Positions 17,610 through 62,561 of a DNA stretch of 64,000 nucleotides are shown here, piece after piece. The notes below the pieces were generated by a model. That model saw nothing but the letters and a program-made list of their open reading frames with translations. It did not search any database and was not told where the DNA came from. Position numbers and translations under genes: made by a program. This stretch comes from Candidatus Woesearchaeota archaeon (GTDB lineage Archaea; Nanobdellota; Nanobdellia; SCGC-AAA011-G17; JACPNG01): assembly GCA_018303365.1 (NCBI GenBank), contig JAGVYI010000016.1, positions 15,330 through 79,329 on the forward strand. The letters are read 5' to 3'. Each line of letters begins with the position of its first letter. Position 1 is the stretch's first letter.

Positions 17610-19232
17610 GTGGAACTTGGTCTTTTTAGTAAAAAGAAAGAGAATCAACCGCAACAACCCCCTTCTTCAGTGCAATCTTCTTCTCAACAAAAACCTGTTT
17701 TTTCTCTTGAAGGTGATAAACCTCCAGCACAGCTTCCAGACTTTACAGATGTCTCAAAGGTTGATGTCCGCTACCCATTGCTTGCACCCTATGCTTTAGT
17801 TCACATTTACTGGGATGCTCCATCTCACGAGCTTGTCTATGAGGTTGAAGAGCCTCAACTCTCTTCTGAAGAAAAAGAAATGCTTTCAACCCTTGAGGAT
17901 GGTATTCGCGAGCTTATCAACATTAGCTTTGTAAACATCAAAGACGAGACGATCATTATTTCTTACCTTGAGAAAAATTTGCAGGTTTTACTCTCTGAGT
18001 TTCACCTACGTATAAAAAAAGAAACTTTCTTGAAGTTTATGTACTATATGTACCGCGACTTTGTCGGCCTTAATGAGATTGAGCCACTTATGCATGATTA
18101 TTATATTGAGGATATTGAATGCAACGGCTCCCAAACGCCCCTTTATATTATTCACCGCAAGTATCAGAATTTGCGAACAAATATTGTTTTTCCTTCAAAC
18201 CAGCCTCTTGCAAGTTTTGTTGAAAAGCTTGCACAGAAAACAGGGAAGTATGTATCATATGCAACGCCCCTTCTTGACGGCAGGCTTCCTGATGGTTCCC
18301 GTGTAAATGCAGTCTATTCCTCTGATGTTTCAAGCAGAGGACCGACTTTTACTATTAGGAAGTTTTCGCGTGAGCCATGGACTCCAATAAAACTTGTTGA
18401 TTTTCGTACTGTTTCTCCCGAGATTCTAGCATATCTTTGGATTCTTATTGAAAACGGTACCAATATCATGGTTGTTGGCGGGACCGGCTCTGGAAAGACT
18501 TCATTTTTGAATGCTATTGCTTTTTTTATTCCGCCTGCTGCCCGTATTGTCTCTATTGAAGATACAAAAGAACTGCAACTTGAGCATGAAAACTGGCTTC
18601 CAAGCATTGCCAGAGAAGGGATTGGTCTTGCTTCGTCCACTGGTCAGAAAAGGGGAGAGGTTACTTTATTCGACCTTCTTCGTGAGAGTTTTCGCCAGCG
18701 TCCTGATTATGTTATTGTTGGAGAGATTCGTGGCAAAGAGGCCTTTGTCCTTATCCAAGGGGCAAGTTCTGGCCATCCTTCTTTTGCAACAATGCATGCG
18801 GAGTCTGTTGAGTCCATGGTCAGGCGTCTAATGACTGAGCCTATTAATTTATCTCCCGCACTTGTTGAATCTATTGATGCTGTCTGCGTTTTAGTTCATG
18901 CAAAGGTTGGCGGCAAAGATGTTCGCCGGATTCGCGATATTTCTGAAATTATCAAGGTTTATCCAGACGGACAGGTGAAAACTAACGTACCCTTTGTCAG
19001 GGATCCACGCAGCGACAAATTTTATTTCCGTACTGGAAGCTATGTCTTTCAAAAGGTTGTTACCCAGCAAGGCATCAACCTGCAGGAGCTGAATCTTGAG
19101 TTTTCACGCAGGGCAAAGCTTCTTTTCAAACTATATGAGCAGAAAATTTTTGGATTTTCCGAAGTTCAGCAAGTTATTCACCAGTACTATAAATCTTCTA
19201 AGGAGGTTCTTTCCAGGTTCGGGATTTCTTAA
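17610..19232 (+). CDS. Type II/IV secretion-family ATPase (FlaI/TadA/PilB-like) of the archaeal pilus system.
   Basis: Walker A VVGGTGSGKTSF, the Asp/His boxes and GEIRG. GTG start, with AGAGGGTGA 5 nt upstream. Confidence 0.8.
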   Translation: MELGLFSKKKENQPQQPPSSVQSSSQQKPVFSLEGDKPPAQLPDFTDVSKVDVRYPLLAPYALVHIYWDAPSHELVYEVEEPQLSSEEKEMLSTLEDGIRELINISFVNIKDETIIISYLEKNLQVLLSEFHLRIKKETFLKFMYYMYRDFVGLNEIEPLMHDYYIEDIECNGSQTPLYIIHRKYQNLRTNIVFPSNQPLASFVEKLAQKTGKYVSYATPLLDGRLPDGSRVNAVYSSDVSSRGPTFTIRKFSREPWTPIKLVDFRTVSPEILAYLWILIENGTNIMVVGGTGSGKTSFLNAIAFFIPPAARIVSIEDTKELQLEHENWLPSIAREGIGLASSTGQKRGEVTLFDLLRESFRQRPDYVIVGEIRGKEAFVLIQGASSGHPSFATMHAESVESMVRRLMTEPINLSPALVESIDAVCVLVHAKVGGKDVRRIRDISEIIKVYPDGQVKTNVPFVRDPRSDKFYFRTGSYVFQKVVTQQGINLQELNLEFSRRAKLLFKLYEQKIFGFSEVQQVIHQYYKSSKEVLSRFGIS

Positions 19233-19234
19233 TT

Positions 19235-20209
19235 ATGGCAGACACATCTTCGTTTGTTGACAAAGAGACTCTTTCGCGCTATGTTGCTTTTCGCAAGAAG
19301 CACAAAGGGGATTTGAAAGATGAGTATGTTCTTTATTCTTCAAGCCCATTTGGACAGTTTGCTAATTCTATTTTTGAATCTGTTTCGCTAAATCTTATAA
19401 AAAAATATCCGCAATATTTCAAGAGTTTGTTTAAGGTCCTACGCGCTTCTGATTTTCCAATTCTTTCAAAGACATATGTCAGCATTATTCTACTTGTTGG
19501 GTTAGCTTCTTATCCTGTTTTTTTTATTCTTCTGCTTCTTTTATTTGGATTCTCAATTACCGGCTTTCTTAACACTTTTCTTCTAAGCCTTTTTGGTGCT
19601 GGACTTGCTCTTTTTCTTGCTTACCAATACCCTTCTTTTTTGGTTTCTTCGCGTCAGAGAAAGTTAAAAAATGACCTTCCATTTGCAGTTATCCATATGG
19701 CTGCTGTTGGAGGCAGCGGAGCCCATCCTTCTTCTATGTTCAACCTTATTGCAACCTCAGATGAGTATAAAGGGGTTCATCCAGAATTTAAGCGGGTTCT
19801 AAACGCTGTGAACCTTTTTGGATATGACCTAAGCACTGCTCTTCGCTCTGTTGCTGACAGTACTGGCTCGAGGGATATTCGCGACTTTTTCGGGGGTATG
19901 GCAACAACAATTGAAAGTGGCGGCAGCATGAAGGAGTTTCTTGATTCAAAGTCTGAGGACCTGATGGTAACATATCGTCTTGAGCGCAAGAAGTTTATCG
20001 AGAGCCTATCAACCTATTCTGATATTTACATTAGCCTATCAATTGGCGGGCCCCTTTTCTTTTTTATTGTCCTTGCTATCTTAAATCTACTTGGCGGTTC
20101 TGTCGGCGGGGTTGCGATCGGCACTCTTGCCACTATCGGTACTTTTGTTATCCTTCCTCTTATCAACCTCGGATTTTTAGCATTTTTAAAATTTAGCAGT
20201 TTAGAATGA
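19235..20209 (+). CDS. FlaJ/TadB-like membrane platform protein, first half.
   Basis: TM segments flank a GspF-like cytoplasmic helical domain. It starts 3 nt after the ATPase stop. Confidence 0.6.
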   Translation: MADTSSFVDKETLSRYVAFRKKHKGDLKDEYVLYSSSPFGQFANSIFESVSLNLIKKYPQYFKSLFKVLRASDFPILSKTYVSIILLVGLASYPVFFILLLLLFGFSITGFLNTFLLSLFGAGLALFLAYQYPSFLVSSRQRKLKNDLPFAVIHMAAVGGSGAHPSSMFNLIATSDEYKGVHPEFKRVLNAVNLFGYDLSTALRSVADSTGSRDIRDFFGGMATTIESGGSMKEFLDSKSEDLMVTYRLERKKFIESLSTYSDIYISLSIGGPLFFFIVLAILNLLGGSVGGVAIGTLATIGTFVILPLINLGFLAFLKFSSLE

Positions 20210-21060
20210 TTAATTTCAAGAAAGAATATTTTGTCGGCATCAGTCTTGCTTTGGTTTTACTAGTTCTAGATGTCTTGTTTCTTCGCTCTACCCGCTGGTT
20301 TATTGCTATTATTATTGTTTCTATCAATATTGGCTGGCTTCAGTTCTGGATTGACTTTTTTCGTGAACAGAACCGTCAGAAGGAAATTGATACAAAATTT
20401 CTTGAGTTTGTTCGCAATCTTGTCAGCACTGCCAAATCCGGTCTTTCAATTCCCAGGGCTATTATTCAAGCTTCTGGTGAGGACTATGGCGCTCTTACAC
20501 CATATGTTCGAAAGCTTTCTCACCAGGTTGAGTGGGGTGTTCCTGTTGAAAAGGCTCTTTTGACCTTTGCAAAGGATACTCGAAATGCTGTGATCAGCAG
20601 GTCTGTTTCTATTGTTATTGAAGCGAGCAAGGCTGGCGGTGATATAGAAAATGTTCTTGATTCTGTTACTGATTCTGTGATGTACGTAAAGAAAATCAAG
20701 CAGGAGAGGAAAAGCGGAACGTACTCGCAAATAGTCCAGGGTTATATTGTTTTTTTTATTTTCATTGCAATAATGCTTGTTTTGCAGCTCTGGCTTTTTC
20801 CACAGTTTTCTAATTTGAAAGGTCTTGGCCAAGGCGGCTCAGAGCTTGCTGGTTCTCTTGGTACAGGTGCTATTTTCGGTGAAGGAAAGCGTGCTGACAT
20901 AGATAGCATTTTTTTTAGTCTTATTCTTGTACAAGGTTTTTTTTCGGGAGTTATGATTGGTGCGTTCTCTGAAGGAAGCGTGAAGCGCGGTCTTTTGCAT
21001 TCTCTTGTTTTGATGACTCTTGCAACGCTTATTATTACAACTGCGAAGGGCGGGATTTAG
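20206..21060 (+). CDS. FlaJ/TadC-like membrane platform protein, second half.
   Basis: A second GspF-like domain between TM segments. ATGA overlap with the first half. Confidence 0.6.
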   Translation: MINFKKEYFVGISLALVLLVLDVLFLRSTRWFIAIIIVSINIGWLQFWIDFFREQNRQKEIDTKFLEFVRNLVSTAKSGLSIPRAIIQASGEDYGALTPYVRKLSHQVEWGVPVEKALLTFAKDTRNAVISRSVSIVIEASKAGGDIENVLDSVTDSVMYVKKIKQERKSGTYSQIVQGYIVFFIFIAIMLVLQLWLFPQFSNLKGLGQGGSELAGSLGTGAIFGEGKRADIDSIFFSLILVQGFFSGVMIGAFSEGSVKRGLLHSLVLMTLATLIITTAKGGI

Positions 21061-28186: not shown

Positions 28187-28588
28187 GTGCTTACTTTACA
28201 ATTCATTCCACGTGCTGAGGTAGAACACCTTCCATCTTCTTCCAGAATTCGCAGACTCCTTGCTCTTGTGAAGGAAGATAAAATTGTCCTTCTTGAAGGG
28301 CGGCTAAGCCCTACTGAAGAGACAGAGCTTATTCAACGCACTATGGAAGATGTTTCAAAGGATTTTAAAGGTATTGAGCTTTGTACAATTTATCCTGGAA
28401 GCAGTCATAATGATAACCTTATCAGCAAACTGAGGCATAGCCTCATTGGTTTTCTTCTTGGTGACCGCCAGGGTCTTACAGTTATTGGGCCTGCTACAAT
28501 TATTAAAGAGATTCGTCGTGATCCTAATAAAGTTCAGGTTATTACAGAGAGTATTCGTCGCCGTAAGCGCCGAAACTCACGAAGGTAG
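28187..28588 (+). CDS. Conserved archaeal protein co-occurring with the GTPase (DUF2073-like).
   Basis: Position and size; a conserved partner in the archaeal GTPase/Zn-ribbon triad. The assignment is from memory of family organisation. Confidence 0.4.
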   Translation: MLTLQFIPRAEVEHLPSSSRIRRLLALVKEDKIVLLEGRLSPTEETELIQRTMEDVSKDFKGIELCTIYPGSSHNDNLISKLRHSLIGFLLGDRQGLTVIGPATIIKEIRRDPNKVQVITESIRRRKRRNSRR

Positions 28589-28590
28589 GT

Positions 28591-28968
28591 ATGCCTCACC
28601 AATGTGTTCGTTGTGGAAACCTGTATCCCGATGGTTCTTCCCAATTGCTTGAGGGTTGCAAATGCGGTGGGAAATTTTTCTTCTTTGTTAAAAAGCATGA
28701 GGTTGAAGAGGCAAAAGAGCTTGTTGCTACCCTTACGAAGAAAGACAAGGACACGATGGAGCAGGATGTTTATGATATTCTTGGGATTGAAGACCAGACC
28801 AAGCCTGTTATTTTGGATCTTGAATCAATCCGGGTTTTAAGCCCTGGCAAATACCAGCTTGATGTTGTTGAACTTTTCAAGGGAAAACCACTTGTTTACA
28901 GGCTTGAAGACGGGAAGTACATTATTGATCTTGCTTCAAGTTTCCGGCGTCAGCAGGCAGACCGCTGA
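28591..28968 (+). CDS. Zn-ribbon protein (DUF2072-like).
   Basis: CVRCGN...CKCGG is a C4 zinc ribbon. It is the third member of the triad. Confidence 0.45.
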   Translation: MPHQCVRCGNLYPDGSSQLLEGCKCGGKFFFFVKKHEVEEAKELVATLTKKDKDTMEQDVYDILGIEDQTKPVILDLESIRVLSPGKYQLDVVELFKGKPLVYRLEDGKYIIDLASSFRRQQADR

Positions 28969-30823
28969 TTTCACTAAAGAATCTTTTTATCCTTACTTCA
29001 GGGTATTTTGAAATTGTTATGTTCCATTCTTTTGGAAGATATTTTAAGTAATTTTGCCATGCGTACCTCTCATCAATAAACACAACAACCCCCTTGTCTT
29101 TTTTGCTTCTTATGCACCTTCCTGCTGCCTGGATAGTCTTTGTTATTGCCGGGACAGTGTAACCATATTCCCATCCTTTTTTGAACCTTTTATCATAGTA
29201 TTTTATGAGCTGTTCTGTTTCTAAGTCTGGCTTTCCTAACGGCAGGCCGACAATAAGCACTCCCTTTAGAAGATCTCCTGGAAGGTCAATCCCTTCTGCA
29301 TAGGACCCTGCATTTGACCCAAGGAGCACAGCCCCGATTTTCCTGTACCCTTTGAACTTTTCAATAAGCTCTTCTTTCTCTTCTTTTGTCATTCCCTGCT
29401 GTTCAAGAAGCATTGTCCTGTGGCAATGTTTTGTTAGCTCCTGATATACATCATCTCTTATCTGATAACTTGGGAAAAATACTGCACAGTTTCCATGTAT
29501 TTCTTTTATTATCTGTGATGTAAGCTGCCCTATCTCTTGATACATTTTTGTATTTCTCATGGAGTATTTTGTTGTTGTTTTTGGCACAACAATACTTAGC
29601 CTGTTCTTTTTTGGGAACGGGTCTTTGTATTCTTTTATTACCGCATTTATCCCAAGCAGGTCTGCGTACATCTTTGCTGGCTTTAGCGTTCCGCTTATTC
29701 CTATAATCATTGCCTGCGATGCTATTTTCTTTAGTAGCGGTGCTGGGTCAAGGCATCGGTAGGTGAGAGTGTACTGAGGCCTTTCTTTTCTATAGGTCCT
29801 CTGGAGAATGCGTGCAAATCCTTCATCTTCACCTCCCCATGTATTGAGAAACTCTGCCAGGGTCTTTGTAAAGCTTTTTTGTTTCAATTCAAGGGTCTGC
29901 TCTCCAACAAAGTCGAGGTCTCCTACTAGCTGGTCTTTGTTGCCTATCTTCTCTATTTTGTCTCCCCACTCACCTTTTTTTATGAGAACTTCATTTTTAT
30001 CAAGACCCAGCTTTTTACTCAGGTCTTCAAGCGCTAGCCCAATTTCTTTTACTGTCTCTGCTATCTCTTTGTAGCCTAAGGATTCACATTCTTTTCTTGC
30101 TGCTTCCAGGCTGAATGACGAGATGCTTATTGTAAGAAGGTCTCTTATCCTTGCAGGTAGGTTGTGCGCTTCATCTATTATAATTATTGCTTTTGTAAGG
30201 TCTTTACCTATCTTTCCAAGAAGGTTATTTCTTACGTTCTCGTTGAATATGTGGAAGTAATCTGCAATGATTATGTCCGAACTCTGTGCATGCATTGCTG
30301 TTATCTCGTAGGGGCATACTTTTTTTACCTTACACACTTCTTTTACTTTTTCAACGTCATTAGTATCTGTTTCTAATATTTTTAATACGCTTTTTGCGCT
30401 TGAAGACACCTTTCCTTTTTCCTTTAGGTTGCTGTAGAATTCACAGTCTTTTCTTTCTACAAGCGATGTGCAGTATTCACTAAACTCTGCAGCAGACAAA
30501 TCTGCCACTCCTGATTGCAGACACATCCATTTTTTTCCTATGAAATCTGCAACCTTTAATCTTGTACTGTGCCTTTGTTTTATTTTCTCTACTGTTTCCA
30601 GAACTATCTTATGCTGTGTGTGCCTGTTTGTAAGAAAGAAGACTGTCTTATTTTCCTTTTTTGCAACGGCAAGTGCTGGTGCCAGCGCTGCTGCTGTCTT
30701 TCCTATTCCTGTTGGCGCGTGAATCAGTATATGTTCTCTTTTCTCGAGCGCTTCTTTTATGTCCTGAATGAGCTGGAGCTGTGTTTCTCTTACTTTGCTA
30801 TGCGGAAAGAGAATATCATGCAT
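28922..30823 (-). CDS. xpd: XPD/Rad3-family 5'-3' DNA helicase with an FeS cluster.
   Basis: Walker A APTGIGKTAAAL, DEAH box IIIDEAHNL, and four FeS Cys (CLQ...C..C....CPYE). Confidence 0.8.
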   Translation of the reverse strand: MHDILFPHSKVRETQLQLIQDIKEALEKREHILIHAPTGIGKTAAALAPALAVAKKENKTVFFLTNRHTQHKIVLETVEKIKQRHSTRLKVADFIGKKWMCLQSGVADLSAAEFSEYCTSLVERKDCEFYSNLKEKGKVSSSAKSVLKILETDTNDVEKVKEVCKVKKVCPYEITAMHAQSSDIIIADYFHIFNENVRNNLLGKIGKDLTKAIIIIDEAHNLPARIRDLLTISISSFSLEAARKECESLGYKEIAETVKEIGLALEDLSKKLGLDKNEVLIKKGEWGDKIEKIGNKDQLVGDLDFVGEQTLELKQKSFTKTLAEFLNTWGGEDEGFARILQRTYRKERPQYTLTYRCLDPAPLLKKIASQAMIIGISGTLKPAKMYADLLGINAVIKEYKDPFPKKNRLSIVVPKTTTKYSMRNTKMYQEIGQLTSQIIKEIHGNCAVFFPSYQIRDDVYQELTKHCHRTMLLEQQGMTKEEKEELIEKFKGYRKIGAVLLGSNAGSYAEGIDLPGDLLKGVLIVGLPLGKPDLETEQLIKYYDKRFKKGWEYGYTVPAITKTIQAAGRCIRSKKDKGVVVFIDERYAWQNYLKYLPKEWNITISKYPEVRIKRFFSEISGLPADAGNLKQDQ

Positions 30824-35234: not shown

Positions 35235-35480
35235 ATGAAACGCACAACAAAGAAGAAAAACAGTGTTCCTCGTGCTGTTGCACCTGGTGCTGCTTCTAAA
35301 CCAAAAAGTTCTTGTTTTGCTTGTTGTGGCGGCAAAGGTGGCTACGTAATTATGGGCATCATCCTCCTTCTTTTAGCTTATGCGCTTTGGGTTGGGGTCT
35401 GGAATCTTACCCAAGTAGTTGCTCTTTTGCTTTTCCTCATGGCAATCAAGAAGTTTATTATGGTGGCTACCTGCCGCTAA
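35235..35480 (+). CDS. Possible small membrane protein.
   Basis: ORF with a basic N-terminus, a CFACCGG motif, and one TM helix. Confidence 0.2.
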   Translation: MKRTTKKKNSVPRAVAPGAASKPKSSCFACCGGKGGYVIMGIILLLLAYALWVGVWNLTQVVALLLFLMAIKKFIMVATCR

Positions 35481-35668
35481 TTTTTTATTTTTTCTATGTT
35501 ATTTTATTATTGAAAGGTTTAAAAATTTGGGTAATTCTATATTATTATTGTGAGAGATAAAATACTGCCCCAAATAATAGAAAAAGCAGGGTTTGATTTT
35601 CAGTGGAGCGCTGAAAGGGTTTGGGCTCTAAAATACCCTGTTGAAGATATGCATATCAAAGAATTAGA

Positions 35669-35962
35669 ATGGCATTTGAAATTCCTTTTTGGAATAGAAA
35701 AGATGGATTTTATGATTTAACACCAAACGAGGTTATTAATAACCCAGATAATTTTAAAGAGGAATATAGTAGAACCATGAAAGCAGATATGACTTATCCG
35801 ATAGATATCATGAAAAACAATGGAAGGTGGCTAATTTTAGATGGGTTGCATAGATTAGTTAAATCTAAGATTCTTGGTTATAGTAAAGTAAAGGTCAGGA
35901 AAATCCCGCGCTCAGAAGTTCCAAATATTGAAAAGCAGGGGCGATTTAAGAAACCTATTTAA
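35669..35962 (+). CDS. ParB/sulfiredoxin-like nuclease domain protein.
   Basis: WLILDGLHRLVKSKILGYSKVKV matches the ParB-box pattern h.L.DG.HR...A...G...V.V. An upstream frame (35531-35719) may encode a frameshifted N-terminus. Confidence 0.35.
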   Translation: MAFEIPFWNRKDGFYDLTPNEVINNPDNFKEEYSRTMKADMTYPIDIMKNNGRWLILDGLHRLVKSKILGYSKVKVRKIPRSEVPNIEKQGRFKKPI

Positions 35963-35987
35963 ATGTGGATTTTTGTTTCTTTTCTAA

Positions 35988-36108
35988 GGGCCCATAGCTT
36001 AGCCTGGAGATTTTCGGGCAATTGGAGCACCGGTCTTATACGACCACTTCCGGTATAAATTACCTCTAAGAAAGCCGGGGGTCCCCGGTTCAAATCCGGG
36101 TGGGCCCA
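35988..36108 (+). tRNA. tRNA-Ile (anticodon UAU) with a canonical 32-nt intron between positions 37 and 38, and about 14-15 extra nt in the D-loop (possible second intron).
   Basis: Acceptor GGGCCCA/TGGGCCC, T-arm CCCGG-TTCAAAT-CCGGG, anticodon stem CCGGT/GCCGG, loop CUUAUA|intron|A. A 4-bp BHB helix CUUA:UAAG is flanked by 3-nt bulges. Confidence 0.6.
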
Positions 36109-36113
36109 TTTTT

Positions 36114-36632
36114 ATGAAATCTCGCGTTTTTGTTAATAAGGTAGAGATAGAGCATCTTAATTGGCTGAGTGTTTGCACAGGTGTTCCTATTTCGTATAAG
36201 GGTGGTGTAGATTTAGCAAACGAGGCAATAGGTATTGAACTTAAGTCACGCCTTCTAAAACCTCGTTCTATAGAGCCTTATCCTAACTTCGCTGTTCATG
36301 AATATCAGTTCAAGTTGTTTCCTGAAGAGAAGCCTGACAGGGAACTTTTTTGGGCGTTTATGCTTTATAACCTTGACATCCCTATTTCTTCTATTAGGGG
36401 CGATAGTGATTTAAAAAAGTATATTGTTGATAGGAGAGTTTGGTTTTTTGATTGGGGTTATGTCAGTCAATTTCCAGTATCAAACGTAAAGACAGGGCCT
36501 TATATTTATGTGCATGGCCGGTCTTTTGCCTCTGAGAAATTCAACTCTTTTGAAGTAGAAGGCGGCTTATTGTATTTTCCTGTTGGTTCTTCATTAGAGG
36601 AGAAGCTTTCTTTTTTGACGAAAAACAATTGA
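36114..36632 (+). CDS. Hypothetical protein with a possible PD-(D/E)xK nuclease-like motif.
   Basis: GGVDLANEAIGIELK gives D...E.K spacing. Weak. Confidence 0.25.
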   Translation: MKSRVFVNKVEIEHLNWLSVCTGVPISYKGGVDLANEAIGIELKSRLLKPRSIEPYPNFAVHEYQFKLFPEEKPDRELFWAFMLYNLDIPISSIRGDSDLKKYIVDRRVWFFDWGYVSQFPVSNVKTGPYIYVHGRSFASEKFNSFEVEGGLLYFPVGSSLEEKLSFLTKNN

Positions 36633-38428: not shown

Positions 38429-38530
38429 ATGAAGCGAAGTTCACGACGTTGGAAGAAAAAGGGTCAAATGCGCTGGAAATGGCAGCGTAAGCGAATGAAA
38501 AAGGAAAGACGCAAGCGTCGTGCCAAGTAG
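38429..38530 (+). CDS. rpl41e: Ribosomal protein L41e (33 aa). Not in the ORF track.
   Basis: Translates to MKRSSRRWKKKGQMRWKWQRKRMKKERRKRRAK, which matches the archaeal L41e pattern (KRSSRRWKKKGRMRWKW). Confidence 0.65.
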   Translation: MKRSSRRWKKKGQMRWKWQRKRMKKERRKRRAK

Positions 38531-38538
38531 TTCTGGCT

Positions 38539-43784: not shown

Positions 43785-45683
<1,899 letters not shown>

Positions 45684-45691
45684 GTGAGCTT

Positions 45692-48121
45692 ATGCCTGAG
45701 GAGATTCAACCACGTCTTATTGAAGAGGAGCTTAAAAATTCCTATCTTAATTATTCTATGAGTGTCATTGTTGGTCGCGCTCTTCCAGATGTTAGAGATG
45801 GTCTTAAGCCTGTTCATCGTCGTATTCTTTATGCTATGCATGAGCTTGGTATGCATTATAATCGTCCATATAAAAAATGCGCGCGTATTGTTGGGGAAGT
45901 TTTGGGAAAGTATCATCCTCATGGAGACAGTGCTGTTTATGATGCACTTGTCCGTATGGCTCAGCCTTTCTCTCTCCGCCACCCTCTTATTGATGGGCAG
46001 GGTAATTTTGGCAGCATTGACGGCGATAATGCGGCCGCAATGAGGTATACAGAAGCACGTCTTTCCCAAATTGCAGGTGAAATTTTATTCGACATAGAGA
46101 AAGAGACTGTTGATTTTACCCCTAATTTTGATAATTCTTTAAAAGAGCCGGTTGTGCTTCCATCACGCATTCCAAACCTTCTTGTTAACGGTAGCTCTGG
46201 GATTGCTGTTGGCATGGCAACAAATATTCCTCCGCATAACCTTCGTGAGGTTTGCCGGGCACTAACACATTTTATTGACAATCCTGAATGCAGTGTTTCT
46301 GATATAATACCTTTTATTCAAGGTCCAGACTTTCCTACTGGTGGAAACATATGCGGGCGTCAAGGCATTCGAGAGGCTTACGAGACTGGCCATGGACGCA
46401 TTATTGTTCGCGGAAAGGCTGAAGTGAAGGGAAAGAAAATTGTAATTACCGAGATTCCATACCAAGTTAACAAGACAACCCTTATCGAGGCCATAGCAGC
46501 TCTTGTCCGTGAAAAACGAATAGAAGGCATTTCTGATATTCGAGACGAATCCGACCGGAGGGGCATGAGTATTGTTATTGAACTTAAAACCAATGCCAGT
46601 GCAGATGTTGTCCTGAACCAGCTCTATAAACACACAAACCTTCAAACTACTTTCGGCGTTCAACTATTGGCCCTTGTTGATAGTCAGCCAAAGGTTCTTT
46701 CCATTTTGGATATCTTCTCCCACTACATTTCTTTTAGAAAGGGAGTTATCCTTCGCAGTATAACTTTTGACTTGGTAAAAGCAGAGCGACGACTTCATAT
46801 TCTTGCAGGTCTTCGTGTCGCATTGCAGGATGTTGATGGTGTTGTCAGTCTTATCCGCTCTTCAAAAGATGTCGAAACTGCAAGGATTGGTCTTGTCTCC
46901 CGATATAAACTCTCTGAACTTCAAGCGAACTCTATTCTGGATATGCGTCTTCAACGTTTTACGTCTCTTGAGCAGGAGAAAATTTACAAAGAGATTGAAG
47001 AGCTTCGGGTGACTATTTCTGAGCTTCAATTAATCCTTTCTAATGAGTCAAAAGTTTTTGCTATTATTAAAAATGAGCTTTCCAACCTTGCTGAGCAGTA
47101 TGGGGATGAGCGCCGAACAACCATTATTTCTGCAACTGAAGATTTTGAGACTGAGGACCTTCTTGAGAAGCAGGATGTTGTTATTACTGTTACCCATTCA
47201 GGGTATATTAAACAAACTCCTCTTGAGCTTTATCGTCAACAACGTCGCGGTGGAAGGGGAACCAGGGCTACTTTAACTAAAGAAGAAGATCTTGTTGAGC
47301 ATCTTTTCGTCACTAGTAACCTTAACCATCTTCTTTTCTTTTCTAATCTTGGTCGTGTGTATTGGTTGCACGCATATCAAGTTCCAGAGGGATCCCGTTA
47401 TGCTAAAGGCAAGGCGCTTGTCAATCTTCTTTCGTTGCAGGAAAGAGAGTACGTAGCTGCAGTCCTTCCAATTCAAACGTTTGATGACCAACACTACCTT
47501 CTTTTCGCGACAAAACAAGGCCTTTTGAAAAAAACAAATCTGTATCTTTATTCCAGGCCACGGAAAACAGGAATTGTTGCAATTGGTCTTAGAGATGGTG
47601 ACGAAGTCGTACAAGTGCGCCTCACCCCAGGAACATTGCGAATGGTTCTTGCAACAAAATATGGGTTTGCGCTTCGTTTTGATGAATCCGCTATTTCCCC
47701 TGTTGGTCGCGGTGCTGCAGGTGTTCGCGGTGTTCGTTTGCGATCTGGAGACTGTGTCATTGGTATGGAAGTTGATGTTCCTGGAGCTTCTCTTTTGAGC
47801 GTTACCAAGAATGGATTTGGTAAGCGCAGCAACCTTGAAGACTATAGGCTTATATCGCGCGGAGGGAGGGGTGTTGTGAACATTAAGACAAAATACCTTT
47901 ATCCTGATAACAGAAATGATGCGGTTACAAGCATCAAAACTGTGCGTGATGGTGACGAGGTGCTTCTTATTAGTCATAAGGGAGTCATTATTCGCCTTCC
48001 GGTTGGTGGGATTCCTTTGGTTGGGAGGGGTGCCCAAGGAGTTCGCCTTATGCGCCTTGATGAAGATGATGCGCTTGTTAGTATGGCCCGTATTATTGTT
48101 GTGCACGACAATGGTAATTAA
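45692..48121 (+). CDS. gyrA: DNA gyrase subunit A.
   Basis: [10 protein letters not shown] active-site Tyr region; C-terminal beta-pinwheel repeats. Confidence 0.9.
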
Positions 48122-62486: not shown

Positions 62487-62561
62487 TGGGGTTGCCCGGA
62501 TTTGGACCGGGGTCTGGGCATCCCGAATGCCCGATGCTCGTCCAAGCTACACCACAACCCC
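62487..62561 (-). tRNA. tRNA-Pro (anticodon CGG).
   Basis: Acceptor GGGGUUG/CAACCCC, anticodon arm GGGCA-UUCGGGA-UGCCC, T-arm CCCGG-UCCAAAU-CCGGG. An extra G lies at -1. Confidence 0.75.

Follow-up and report, generated by a model that had tools for sequence, protein, structure and literature searches.

An archaeal tRNA-Ile(UAU) gene with two small predicted BHB introns

Introduction

The usual archaeal route for reading the isoleucine codon AUA combines tRNA-Ile2(CAU) with the agmatidine synthetase TiaS. A contig assigned to Candidatus Woesearchaeota archaeon (JAGVYI010000016.1), of which a stretch of 64,000 nt was analysed here (the window), raises the question of whether AUA might be read there in a more direct manner, by a tRNA-Ile whose anticodon UAU is encoded in the genome. 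The candidate gene is 121 nt long, and the strands of both its D-stem and its anticodon stem are separated by far more nucleotides than a cloverleaf can hold. It was therefore necessary to establish whether this is a genuine tRNA gene, which nucleotides would have to be removed from its transcript, and whether a UAU anticodon is as confined to a few archaeal lineages as a first-pass annotation of the window had supposed.

Results

A local Rfam scan aligned positions 1-71 of the tRNA model with 35988-36108 at 47 bits (gathering score, 29; E 3e-9), which bears out, end to end, the 121-nt gene that the first-pass annotation had drawn here. Two inserts interrupt the alignment, one of 21 nt in the D-loop, where the tRNA model expects 4, and one of 33 nt right after C32-U33-U34-A35-U36-A37. 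The gene starts with GGGCCCA UA GCUU AGCCUGGAGAUUUUCGGGCAAUUG GAGC A CCGGU and ends with CUUAUA[C...AA]A GCCGG GGGUC CCCGG UUCAAAU CCGGG UGGGCCC A. Its acceptor stem is GGGCCCA/UGGGCCC with the discriminator A73, its T-arm is CCCGG-UUCAAAU-CCGGG, and 24 and 39 nt separate the strands of the D-stem (GCUU/GAGC) and of the anticodon stem (CCGGU/GCCGG), respectively. The covariance model puts UAU at positions 34-36, and deletion of both introns yields a 75-nt cloverleaf that ARAGORN calls tRNA-Ile(tat), in agreement with the anticodon proposed earlier. That proposal had named two outcomes that would speak against it, a different anticodon or a D-loop of normal length under another D-stem pairing; with UAU at 34-36 and no such alternative D-stem found in the gene, neither is the case. 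The features of the locus are collected in Table 1.

Table 1. The tRNA-Ile(UAU) gene, its predicted introns and its flanking signals, in positions of the window. A vertical bar marks a predicted cut.
Feature	Position	Strand	Description
Purine-rich stretch AAGAAACC	precedes the TATA-like box	+	from the sequence
TATA-like box TATTTAAAT	35956..35964	+	24-32 nt upstream of tRNA position 1; starts at -31/-32
Pre-tRNA-Ile(UAU) gene, complete	35988..36108	+	121 nt, CCA not encoded; Rfam RF00005 match with identical ends
Exon 1	35988..36007	+	positions 1-19: acceptor 5' strand, U8 A9, D-stem 5' strand GCUU, A14 G15 C16 C17 U17a G18 G19
Intron 1	36008..36021	+	14 nt, AGAUUUUCGGGCAA; non-canonical, D-loop, between G19 and U20
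Intron 1 outer helix	35999-36001 with 36023-36025	+	3 bp (BHB scan)
Intron 1 central helix	36002-36005 with 36016-36019	+	GCCU (G15-U17a) with GGGC (BHB scan)
Intron 1 bulges	36006-36008 and 36020-36022	+	GG|A and AA|U (BHB scan)
Intron 1 inner helix	36009-10 with 36014-15	+	2 bp and UUU loop (BHB scan)
Exon 2	36022..36040	+	U20 U20a G21, D-stem 3' strand GAGC, A26, anticodon stem 5' strand CCGGU, C32 U33 U34 A35 U36 A37
Anticodon TAT (UAU)	36037..36039	+	reads AUA (predicted); CUUAUA on model positions 32-37 (covariance-model alignment)
Intron 2	36041..36072	+	32 nt, canonical position 37/38
Intron 2 outer helix			anticodon stem, 5 bp
Intron 2 central helix	36035-36038 with 36067-36070	+	CUUA with UAAG (BHB scan)
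Intron 2 bulges	36039-36041 and 36071-36073	+	UA|C and AA|A (BHB scan)
Intron 2 inner helix	36042-43 with 36065-66		2 bp
Intron 2 small hairpin	36052-55/36061-64	+	within the intron
Exon 3	36073..36108	+	A38, anticodon stem 3' strand GCCGG, 5-nt variable loop GGGUC, T-arm, acceptor 3' strand, A73
T5 run	36109..36113	+	directly after A73

The spliced product keeps the four stems together with U8, A14, G18G19, G15:C48, U33, A37, G53:C61, UUC and A58. Its body is of class I and of the Ile type (G1-C72, G2-C71, G3-C70, A73, A37 and A38), and it carries the signature GGGCCCR...CUUAUA that is common to at least 85 archaeal-type genes. Position 21 is G instead of the near-universal A, as it also is in at least 16 relatives without introns, usually alongside U13. 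The gene is 100% identical across three independent metagenome contigs (L001-L003). No group I or group II ribozyme core, which takes hundreds of nucleotides, is present in inserts of 14 and 32 nt, and no Rfam intron family matches them. Judged by its sequence, the stretch at 35988-36108 is a real archaeal tRNA-Ile(UAU) gene with two small BHB introns.

Standard tRNA finders overlook the gene or mislabel it as Ser(UGA). The intron search of ARAGORN, which had been suggested as a check, missed it with or without the -i option, in the window as well as in the region, and gave the isoleucine UAU call only after both inserts had been spliced out. Whole-window Rfam scans (gathering threshold; E<=0.01) missed it as well through filter loss, and only the local scan found it. 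When the D insert alone was removed, ARAGORN -i placed the 32-nt intron after U34 and reported tRNA-Ser(tga) i(37,32), the same Ser(UGA) label that the program gives to 14 of the UAU genes among the relatives. An anticodon other than UAU, with the 32-nt intron lying elsewhere, for example after U34 to leave UGA, is nevertheless scarcely credible: the BHB scan described below finds no BHB at the U34| site, the class I body with its 5-nt variable loop is not that of a long-arm Ser tRNA, CUUAUA falls on positions 32-37 in the covariance-model alignment, and the BHB at 37/38 is conserved in 74 relatives. With no BHB at that site and a class I body, the Ser(UGA) call is a tool artefact. Because such genes are missed or mislabelled, a genome of this kind would seem to be devoid of an AUA decoder.

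The borders of the two introns were sought by scanning every candidate pair of intron ends within the gene for the BHB geometry, that is, a central helix of 4 bp, followed 3' on each strand by a 3-nt bulge that is cut behind its second base, with further helices on either side. Among the strict hits only two leave a tRNA, and both are of the 3-4-3 (hBHBh') type. One of them is the 32-nt intron at 37/38 that had been proposed before, with CUUA:UAAG between two 3-nt bulges. The other lies in the D-loop and is the sole strict D-arm BHB compatible with a tRNA. For this loop, in which the surplus is 14 nt, the first-pass annotation was right about a second, non-canonical intron, but not about its borders: these had been put at about 36010-36024, whereas the best solution, 36008-36021, lies 2-3 nt to the left.

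Taken by itself, the sequence of this one gene argues for the D-loop motif only modestly. Between 3 and 6% of shuffled D-loops match it with a tRNA-compatible BHB (p ~0.03-0.06, a value for a single sequence). Single-sequence folding of the pre-tRNA predicts neither BHB conformation; its minimum free energy (MFE) is -52.4 kcal/mol, compared with -36.6 kcal/mol for the two-BHB cloverleaf, and the MFE fold contains a continuous 7-bp hairpin in the D-loop and pairs the CCGG of the intron with the 3' strand of the anticodon stem. It was also observed that ACUUCCGGU in intron 2 (36046-36054) resembles the 5' anticodon-stem strand and pairs in the MFE fold with 36074-36082, which gives a competing conformation of the pre-tRNA. 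Since the shuffle test is marginal and the MFE folding is contrary, the case for the introns rests on the relatives of the gene.

These relatives were collected in two ways. Scanning GTDB at one genome per species with the pattern GGGCCCRTAGCTYAR-N4-34-RAGCR-N5-CTTATA returned, among the matches listed, at least 85 archaeal-type UAU genes, the remainder being intron-less bacterial genes, including those of CPR bacteria. Most of the archaeal-type matches listed belong to genomes with the labels Woese-, Pace-, Nano-, Micr-, Undin-, Aenigm- and Iainarchaeota, and some of the archaeal records are labelled otherwise ('Methanosarcinales', 'Thermoplasmata', 'uncultured archaeon'). A scan of metagenomes, in which extra bases were required after YYTGG, contributed 61 further loci. 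The D-arm predicted after splicing, GCTTAGCCTGGTTGGAGC, is exactly the one that intron-less relatives have; indeed, the D-arm of three intron-less genes from archaea, GCTTAG-CCTGGTTG-GAGC, is that of the window gene minus 36008-36021. In another 24 distinct genes an insert of 14-33 nt is found at the same place, right after G18G19. In these, exon bases G15-N17a pair with the 3' end of the intron and the 3' bulge is nearly always AA|U, with inner hairpins that are unrelated in sequence.

Covariation at the D-loop BHB was measured in 27 distinct genes, picked by pairing-independent criteria, using fixed-length constructs across the junctions. Of the cells so compared, 95.9% are paired, versus 25-44% (about 41%) with slid partners; both sides have changed in 36 cells against 10 expected, and none of 500 shuffles reaches this. 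The change from C16:G to U16:A is seen in 6 of the 27 genes, and each of the two inner pairs occurs as 4-5 pair types. The BHB at 37/38 behaves in the same way in 74 distinct genes, with 92.4% of cells paired (89.5% in the central helix) versus 22-48% for slid partners and a covariation score reached by 0/500 shuffles. It is this comparative evidence, the match of the spliced D-arm and the compensatory changes, that fixes the borders of the introns and makes secure, through comparison of sequences, a D-loop BHB that is modest on a single sequence. G19|U20 thus appears as a conserved, covarying intron site in a Woese-/Nanoarchaeia-type subgroup.

The same comparison bears on two other accounts of the D-loop. 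The scan also returned a BHB for a 12-nt intron at 36009-36020 (central helix CCUG:CGGG, outer helix of 4 bp, inner helix of 1 bp), which would leave a 12-nt D-loop, AGCCUGGAAUUG. This register is improbable: its inner helix is 1 bp, it turns G15:C into G15:U, the D-loop that it leaves is present in 0 of ~180 relatives, whereas removal of 36008-36021 gives an intron-less D-arm exactly, and the relatives retain the GG|N ... AA|U register. Slightly less probable still is that the 14 nt are retained, so that the D-loop of the mature tRNA would be expanded and include a small additional hairpin, such as the stable 7-bp one of the MFE fold. A retained hairpin, however, needs neither 3-nt bulges nor a conserved AA|U, nor an insert whose removal leaves a normal 10-nt D-loop; it would bury G18G19; and in the relatives the insert varies freely in length (14-33 nt) and in sequence while the BHB geometry is kept. 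We therefore prefer the 14-nt intron at G19|U20.

Further intron sites were noted among the relatives. Six close relatives (L117, L131, L145, L149, L162 and L069) carry, in addition to the introns at G19|U20 and 37/38, a third one of 15 to ~150 nt in the T-loop after GTTCAAA, which the window gene does not have. Other relatives have introns at other sites of the D-arm or the anticodon stem, for example CCTGGTTAGA|...|AAGCG and GAGCGCCGT|....

As to the distribution of such genes, the statement that a genomic UAU anticodon characterizes only a few lineages is outdated, given the 85 or more archaeal-type UAU genes, mostly in DPANN-labelled genomes. Among the matches listed (loci L005-L124), 81 of the 85 archaeal-type UAU genes have an insert at 37/38. 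The corresponding figure for neighbouring Gly(GCC), Glu(UUC) and Val(UAC) tRNAs is 9/53 (~17%), a rough baseline that depends on ARAGORN.

The surroundings of the gene are those of an archaeal transcription unit. TATA-like hexamers cluster at -36 to -30, and nowhere else, in 132 distinct archaeal regions upstream of UAU genes, and the window gene has its TATA-like box at this place. The T5 run downstream is probably an archaeal transcription terminator, with weak support from the relatives, of which 23 of 87 have TTTT at most 3 nt from the 3' end. The gene content of the window is archaeal (Kae1, XPD, YchF-like GTPase, eIF2-gamma, aIF5B, RpoE, S6e and OapB). The gene for the YchF-like GTPase adjoins tRNA-Ile(UAU) here and in 11 other loci, with 51-59% amino-acid identity, among them genomes labelled Woese-, Pace- and Nanoarchaeia. 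This adjacency assigns the organism to that DPANN group.

The small neighbouring ORFs without family matches, and a gene-bearing segment of 1,065 bp that is inverted in two other metagenome contigs, might suggest a pseudogene in decay or a tRNA-like attachment remnant by a mobile or rearranging segment. We give this suspicion very little credence, about as little as the retained insert. The stems and tertiary positions are all intact, the promoter is at the place typical of the clade and the gene has one and the same sequence in either orientation of the segment. AUA, moreover, is heavily used, with 32% of the isoleucine codons (26.6 per 1000) in the Pfam-supported genes of the window, yet ARAGORN and a regex scan found no other AUA decoder within these 64 kb; a T-arm/acceptor regex applied to both strands of the window likewise found no further hidden or disrupted tRNA such as tRNA-Ile2(CAU). 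Genes for EndA, RtcB, TiaS and IleRS were not found within the 64-kb window, a fraction of the genome, in Pfam scans of 60/70 candidate ORFs.

Several other features of the window were recorded. The inverted segment (35392-36456) contains the tRNA-Ile gene, a 97-aa ORF and 114 codons from the start of the ORF at 36114-36632; it is inverted at 100% identity in L002 (ENA ERZ4903072) and L004 (JGI 3300002105) relative to the window and to L001 and L003. There are no inverted repeats at the junctions of the inversion, only TTGGGGT in direct orientation at both; once inverted, the segment would give the 172-aa ORF a different C-terminus. On the minus strand, ARAGORN places a tRNA-Pro(CGG) at 62487-62561, a call that an 800-nt scan with the Rfam tRNA model does not repeat even at E<=1. 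The D-stem of this tRNA-Pro is weak (2 Watson-Crick and 2 G-U pairs), its T-loop has C54 (CUCAAAU), and it recalls the odd D-arm of the tRNA-Pro(CGG) of ARMAN-2 (PMC3239211). An unannotated 33-codon ORF on the plus strand (38430-38531), extremely basic (MKRSSRRWKKKGQMRWKWQRKRMKKERRKRRAK), matches ~20 other loci, mostly DPANN-labelled, with nucleotide identities of roughly 79-87%. Its product is probably ribosomal protein eL41; at first it had resembled a conserved small RNA, but Rfam gives no match. The OapB (origin-associated protein) homologue at 28187-28588 (+) stands beside the gene for an XPD-type helicase (28922-30823), and a replication origin may lie near it. DNA gyrase B and A genes occupy 43785-48121 (+). 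A type IV pilus/archaellum-like ATPase gene and two membrane-platform genes at 17610-21060 are followed by large ORFs without family match.

Discussion

We consider, with a probability of roughly 0.88, that the locus is an expressed archaeal tRNA gene, whose primary transcript with two short 3-4-3 BHB introns would be spliced to a UAU tRNA-Ile that would read AUA in place of the TiaS route. EndA is predicted to cleave behind the second bulge base, at G19|A and A|U20 for intron 1 and at A37|C and A|A38 for intron 2, and an RtcB-type ligase would presumably join the three exons. The predicted junctions are AGCCUGG|UUGGAGC (UAGCCUGG|UUGGAGCACC) and CUUAUA|AGCCGG (GGUCUUAUA|AGCCGGG). Addition of CCA after ligation would complete the 75-nt class-I tRNA with anticodon UAU, to which t6A37 would probably be added; a Kae1 gene is located 2 kb upstream. 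Charged with isoleucine, this tRNA would read AUA by a U34:A pair, and such direct reading would replace both tRNA-Ile2(CAU) and TiaS, the latter being presumably absent from the genome. As both motifs are strict 3-4-3 ones, even an EndA of strict specificity could process them, and relaxed specificity is not strictly required.

Archaeal tRNA genes with multiple introns were reportedly described by Sugahara in 2007 and 2008. Thermoproteales and other archaea with a broad-specificity EndA have up to three BHB introns per tRNA, according to two reviews (PMC4090602, PMC4033280). The window gene is similar to theirs in combining a canonical and a non-canonical intron and differs in lineage, which is DPANN here. 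Its G19|U20 site is not among the positions listed in the text consulted of PMC4090602, where 20/21 and 22/23 are the non-canonical D-arm sites given.

Closer parallels exist within DPANN. ARMAN genomes have tRNA-Ile(UAU) and possess neither tRNA-Ile(CAU) nor TiaS (Fujishima et al. 2011, PMC3239211), and the pre-tRNA-Ile(UAU) of ARMAN-2, a member of Micrarchaeota, has a 25-nt intron at 37/38 that is cleaved in vitro by its own EndA (PMC3239211). The window gene shares with it the DPANN affiliation, the genomic UAU anticodon and the strict hBHBh' intron at 37/38. On the other hand, the ARMAN-2 gene has one intron, whereas the window gene has the additional D-loop intron at G19|U20 and belongs to an organism that groups with Woese-, Pace- and Nanoarchaeia-type genomes rather than with Micrarchaeota. 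EndAs of DPANN archaea with an L3 loop have been linked to disrupted tRNA genes (PMC5829648). We found no literature on TiaS or agmatidine in DPANN archaea beyond ARMAN. Nanoarchaeum equitans and Korarchaeum cryptofilum also have tRNA-Ile(UAU) in genomes without TiaS (PMC3919564, PMC6000648); the K. cryptofilum gene has one intron as against two in the window gene. The first-pass suggestion that tiaS may be dispensable thus has a published precedent in these two species and in ARMAN. Both were long deemed isolated exceptions, whereas the matches listed here span most of the DPANN phyla labels.

A UAU reader of AUA is also known in bacteria. In Mycoplasma mobile, U34 of tRNA-Ile2(UAU) reads AUA without any C34-modifying enzyme (Taniguchi et al. 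2013, PMC3575796), and an adapted IleRS and ribosome are needed to avoid the reading of AUG (PMC3575796). This system is bacterial and intron-less and involves the loss of TilS rather than of TiaS.

Eukaryotic nuclear tRNA-Ile(UAU) genes always bear an intron at 37/38, with which the anticodon pairs, and, unlike the window gene, have no intron in the D-loop. In yeast the intron is needed by Pus1 to form pseudouridine at 34 and 36, and eukaryotes avoid misreading of AUG via pseudouridine 34, the synthesis of which is intron-dependent (PMC4090602). It is conceivable, though we consider it unlikely, that the DPANN 37/38 intron, which pairs U34 and A35 in the BHB helix, is needed for an anticodon modification that keeps U34 from reading AUG, which could explain why the UAU anticodon and this intron almost always occur together in DPANN archaea, and that the conserved G19|U20 intron, which sequesters G15-U17a, likewise gates a modification of the D-loop. 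We know of no archaeal case of intron-dependent pseudouridylation of tRNA-Ile(UAU). If true, this would be the archaeal counterpart of the intron-dependent formation of pseudouridine 34/36 in the eukaryotic tRNA-Ile(UAU).

Multi-intron BHB tRNAs and TiaS-less UAU decoding have already been published, and the locus opens no new mechanism; it adds one well-resolved case of a two-intron tRNA-Ile(UAU). What goes beyond the first-pass annotation is that the UAU gene type is widespread across DPANN and not rare, and that the predicted G19|U20 intron is conserved and covarying in a subgroup. The survey of ~180 related genes shows tRNA-Ile(UAU) to be a hotspot of conserved BHB introns, at 37/38, at G19|U20, at other D-arm sites and at a T-loop site, and suggests that direct decoding of AUA by UAU is the norm across DPANN archaea and not an oddity.
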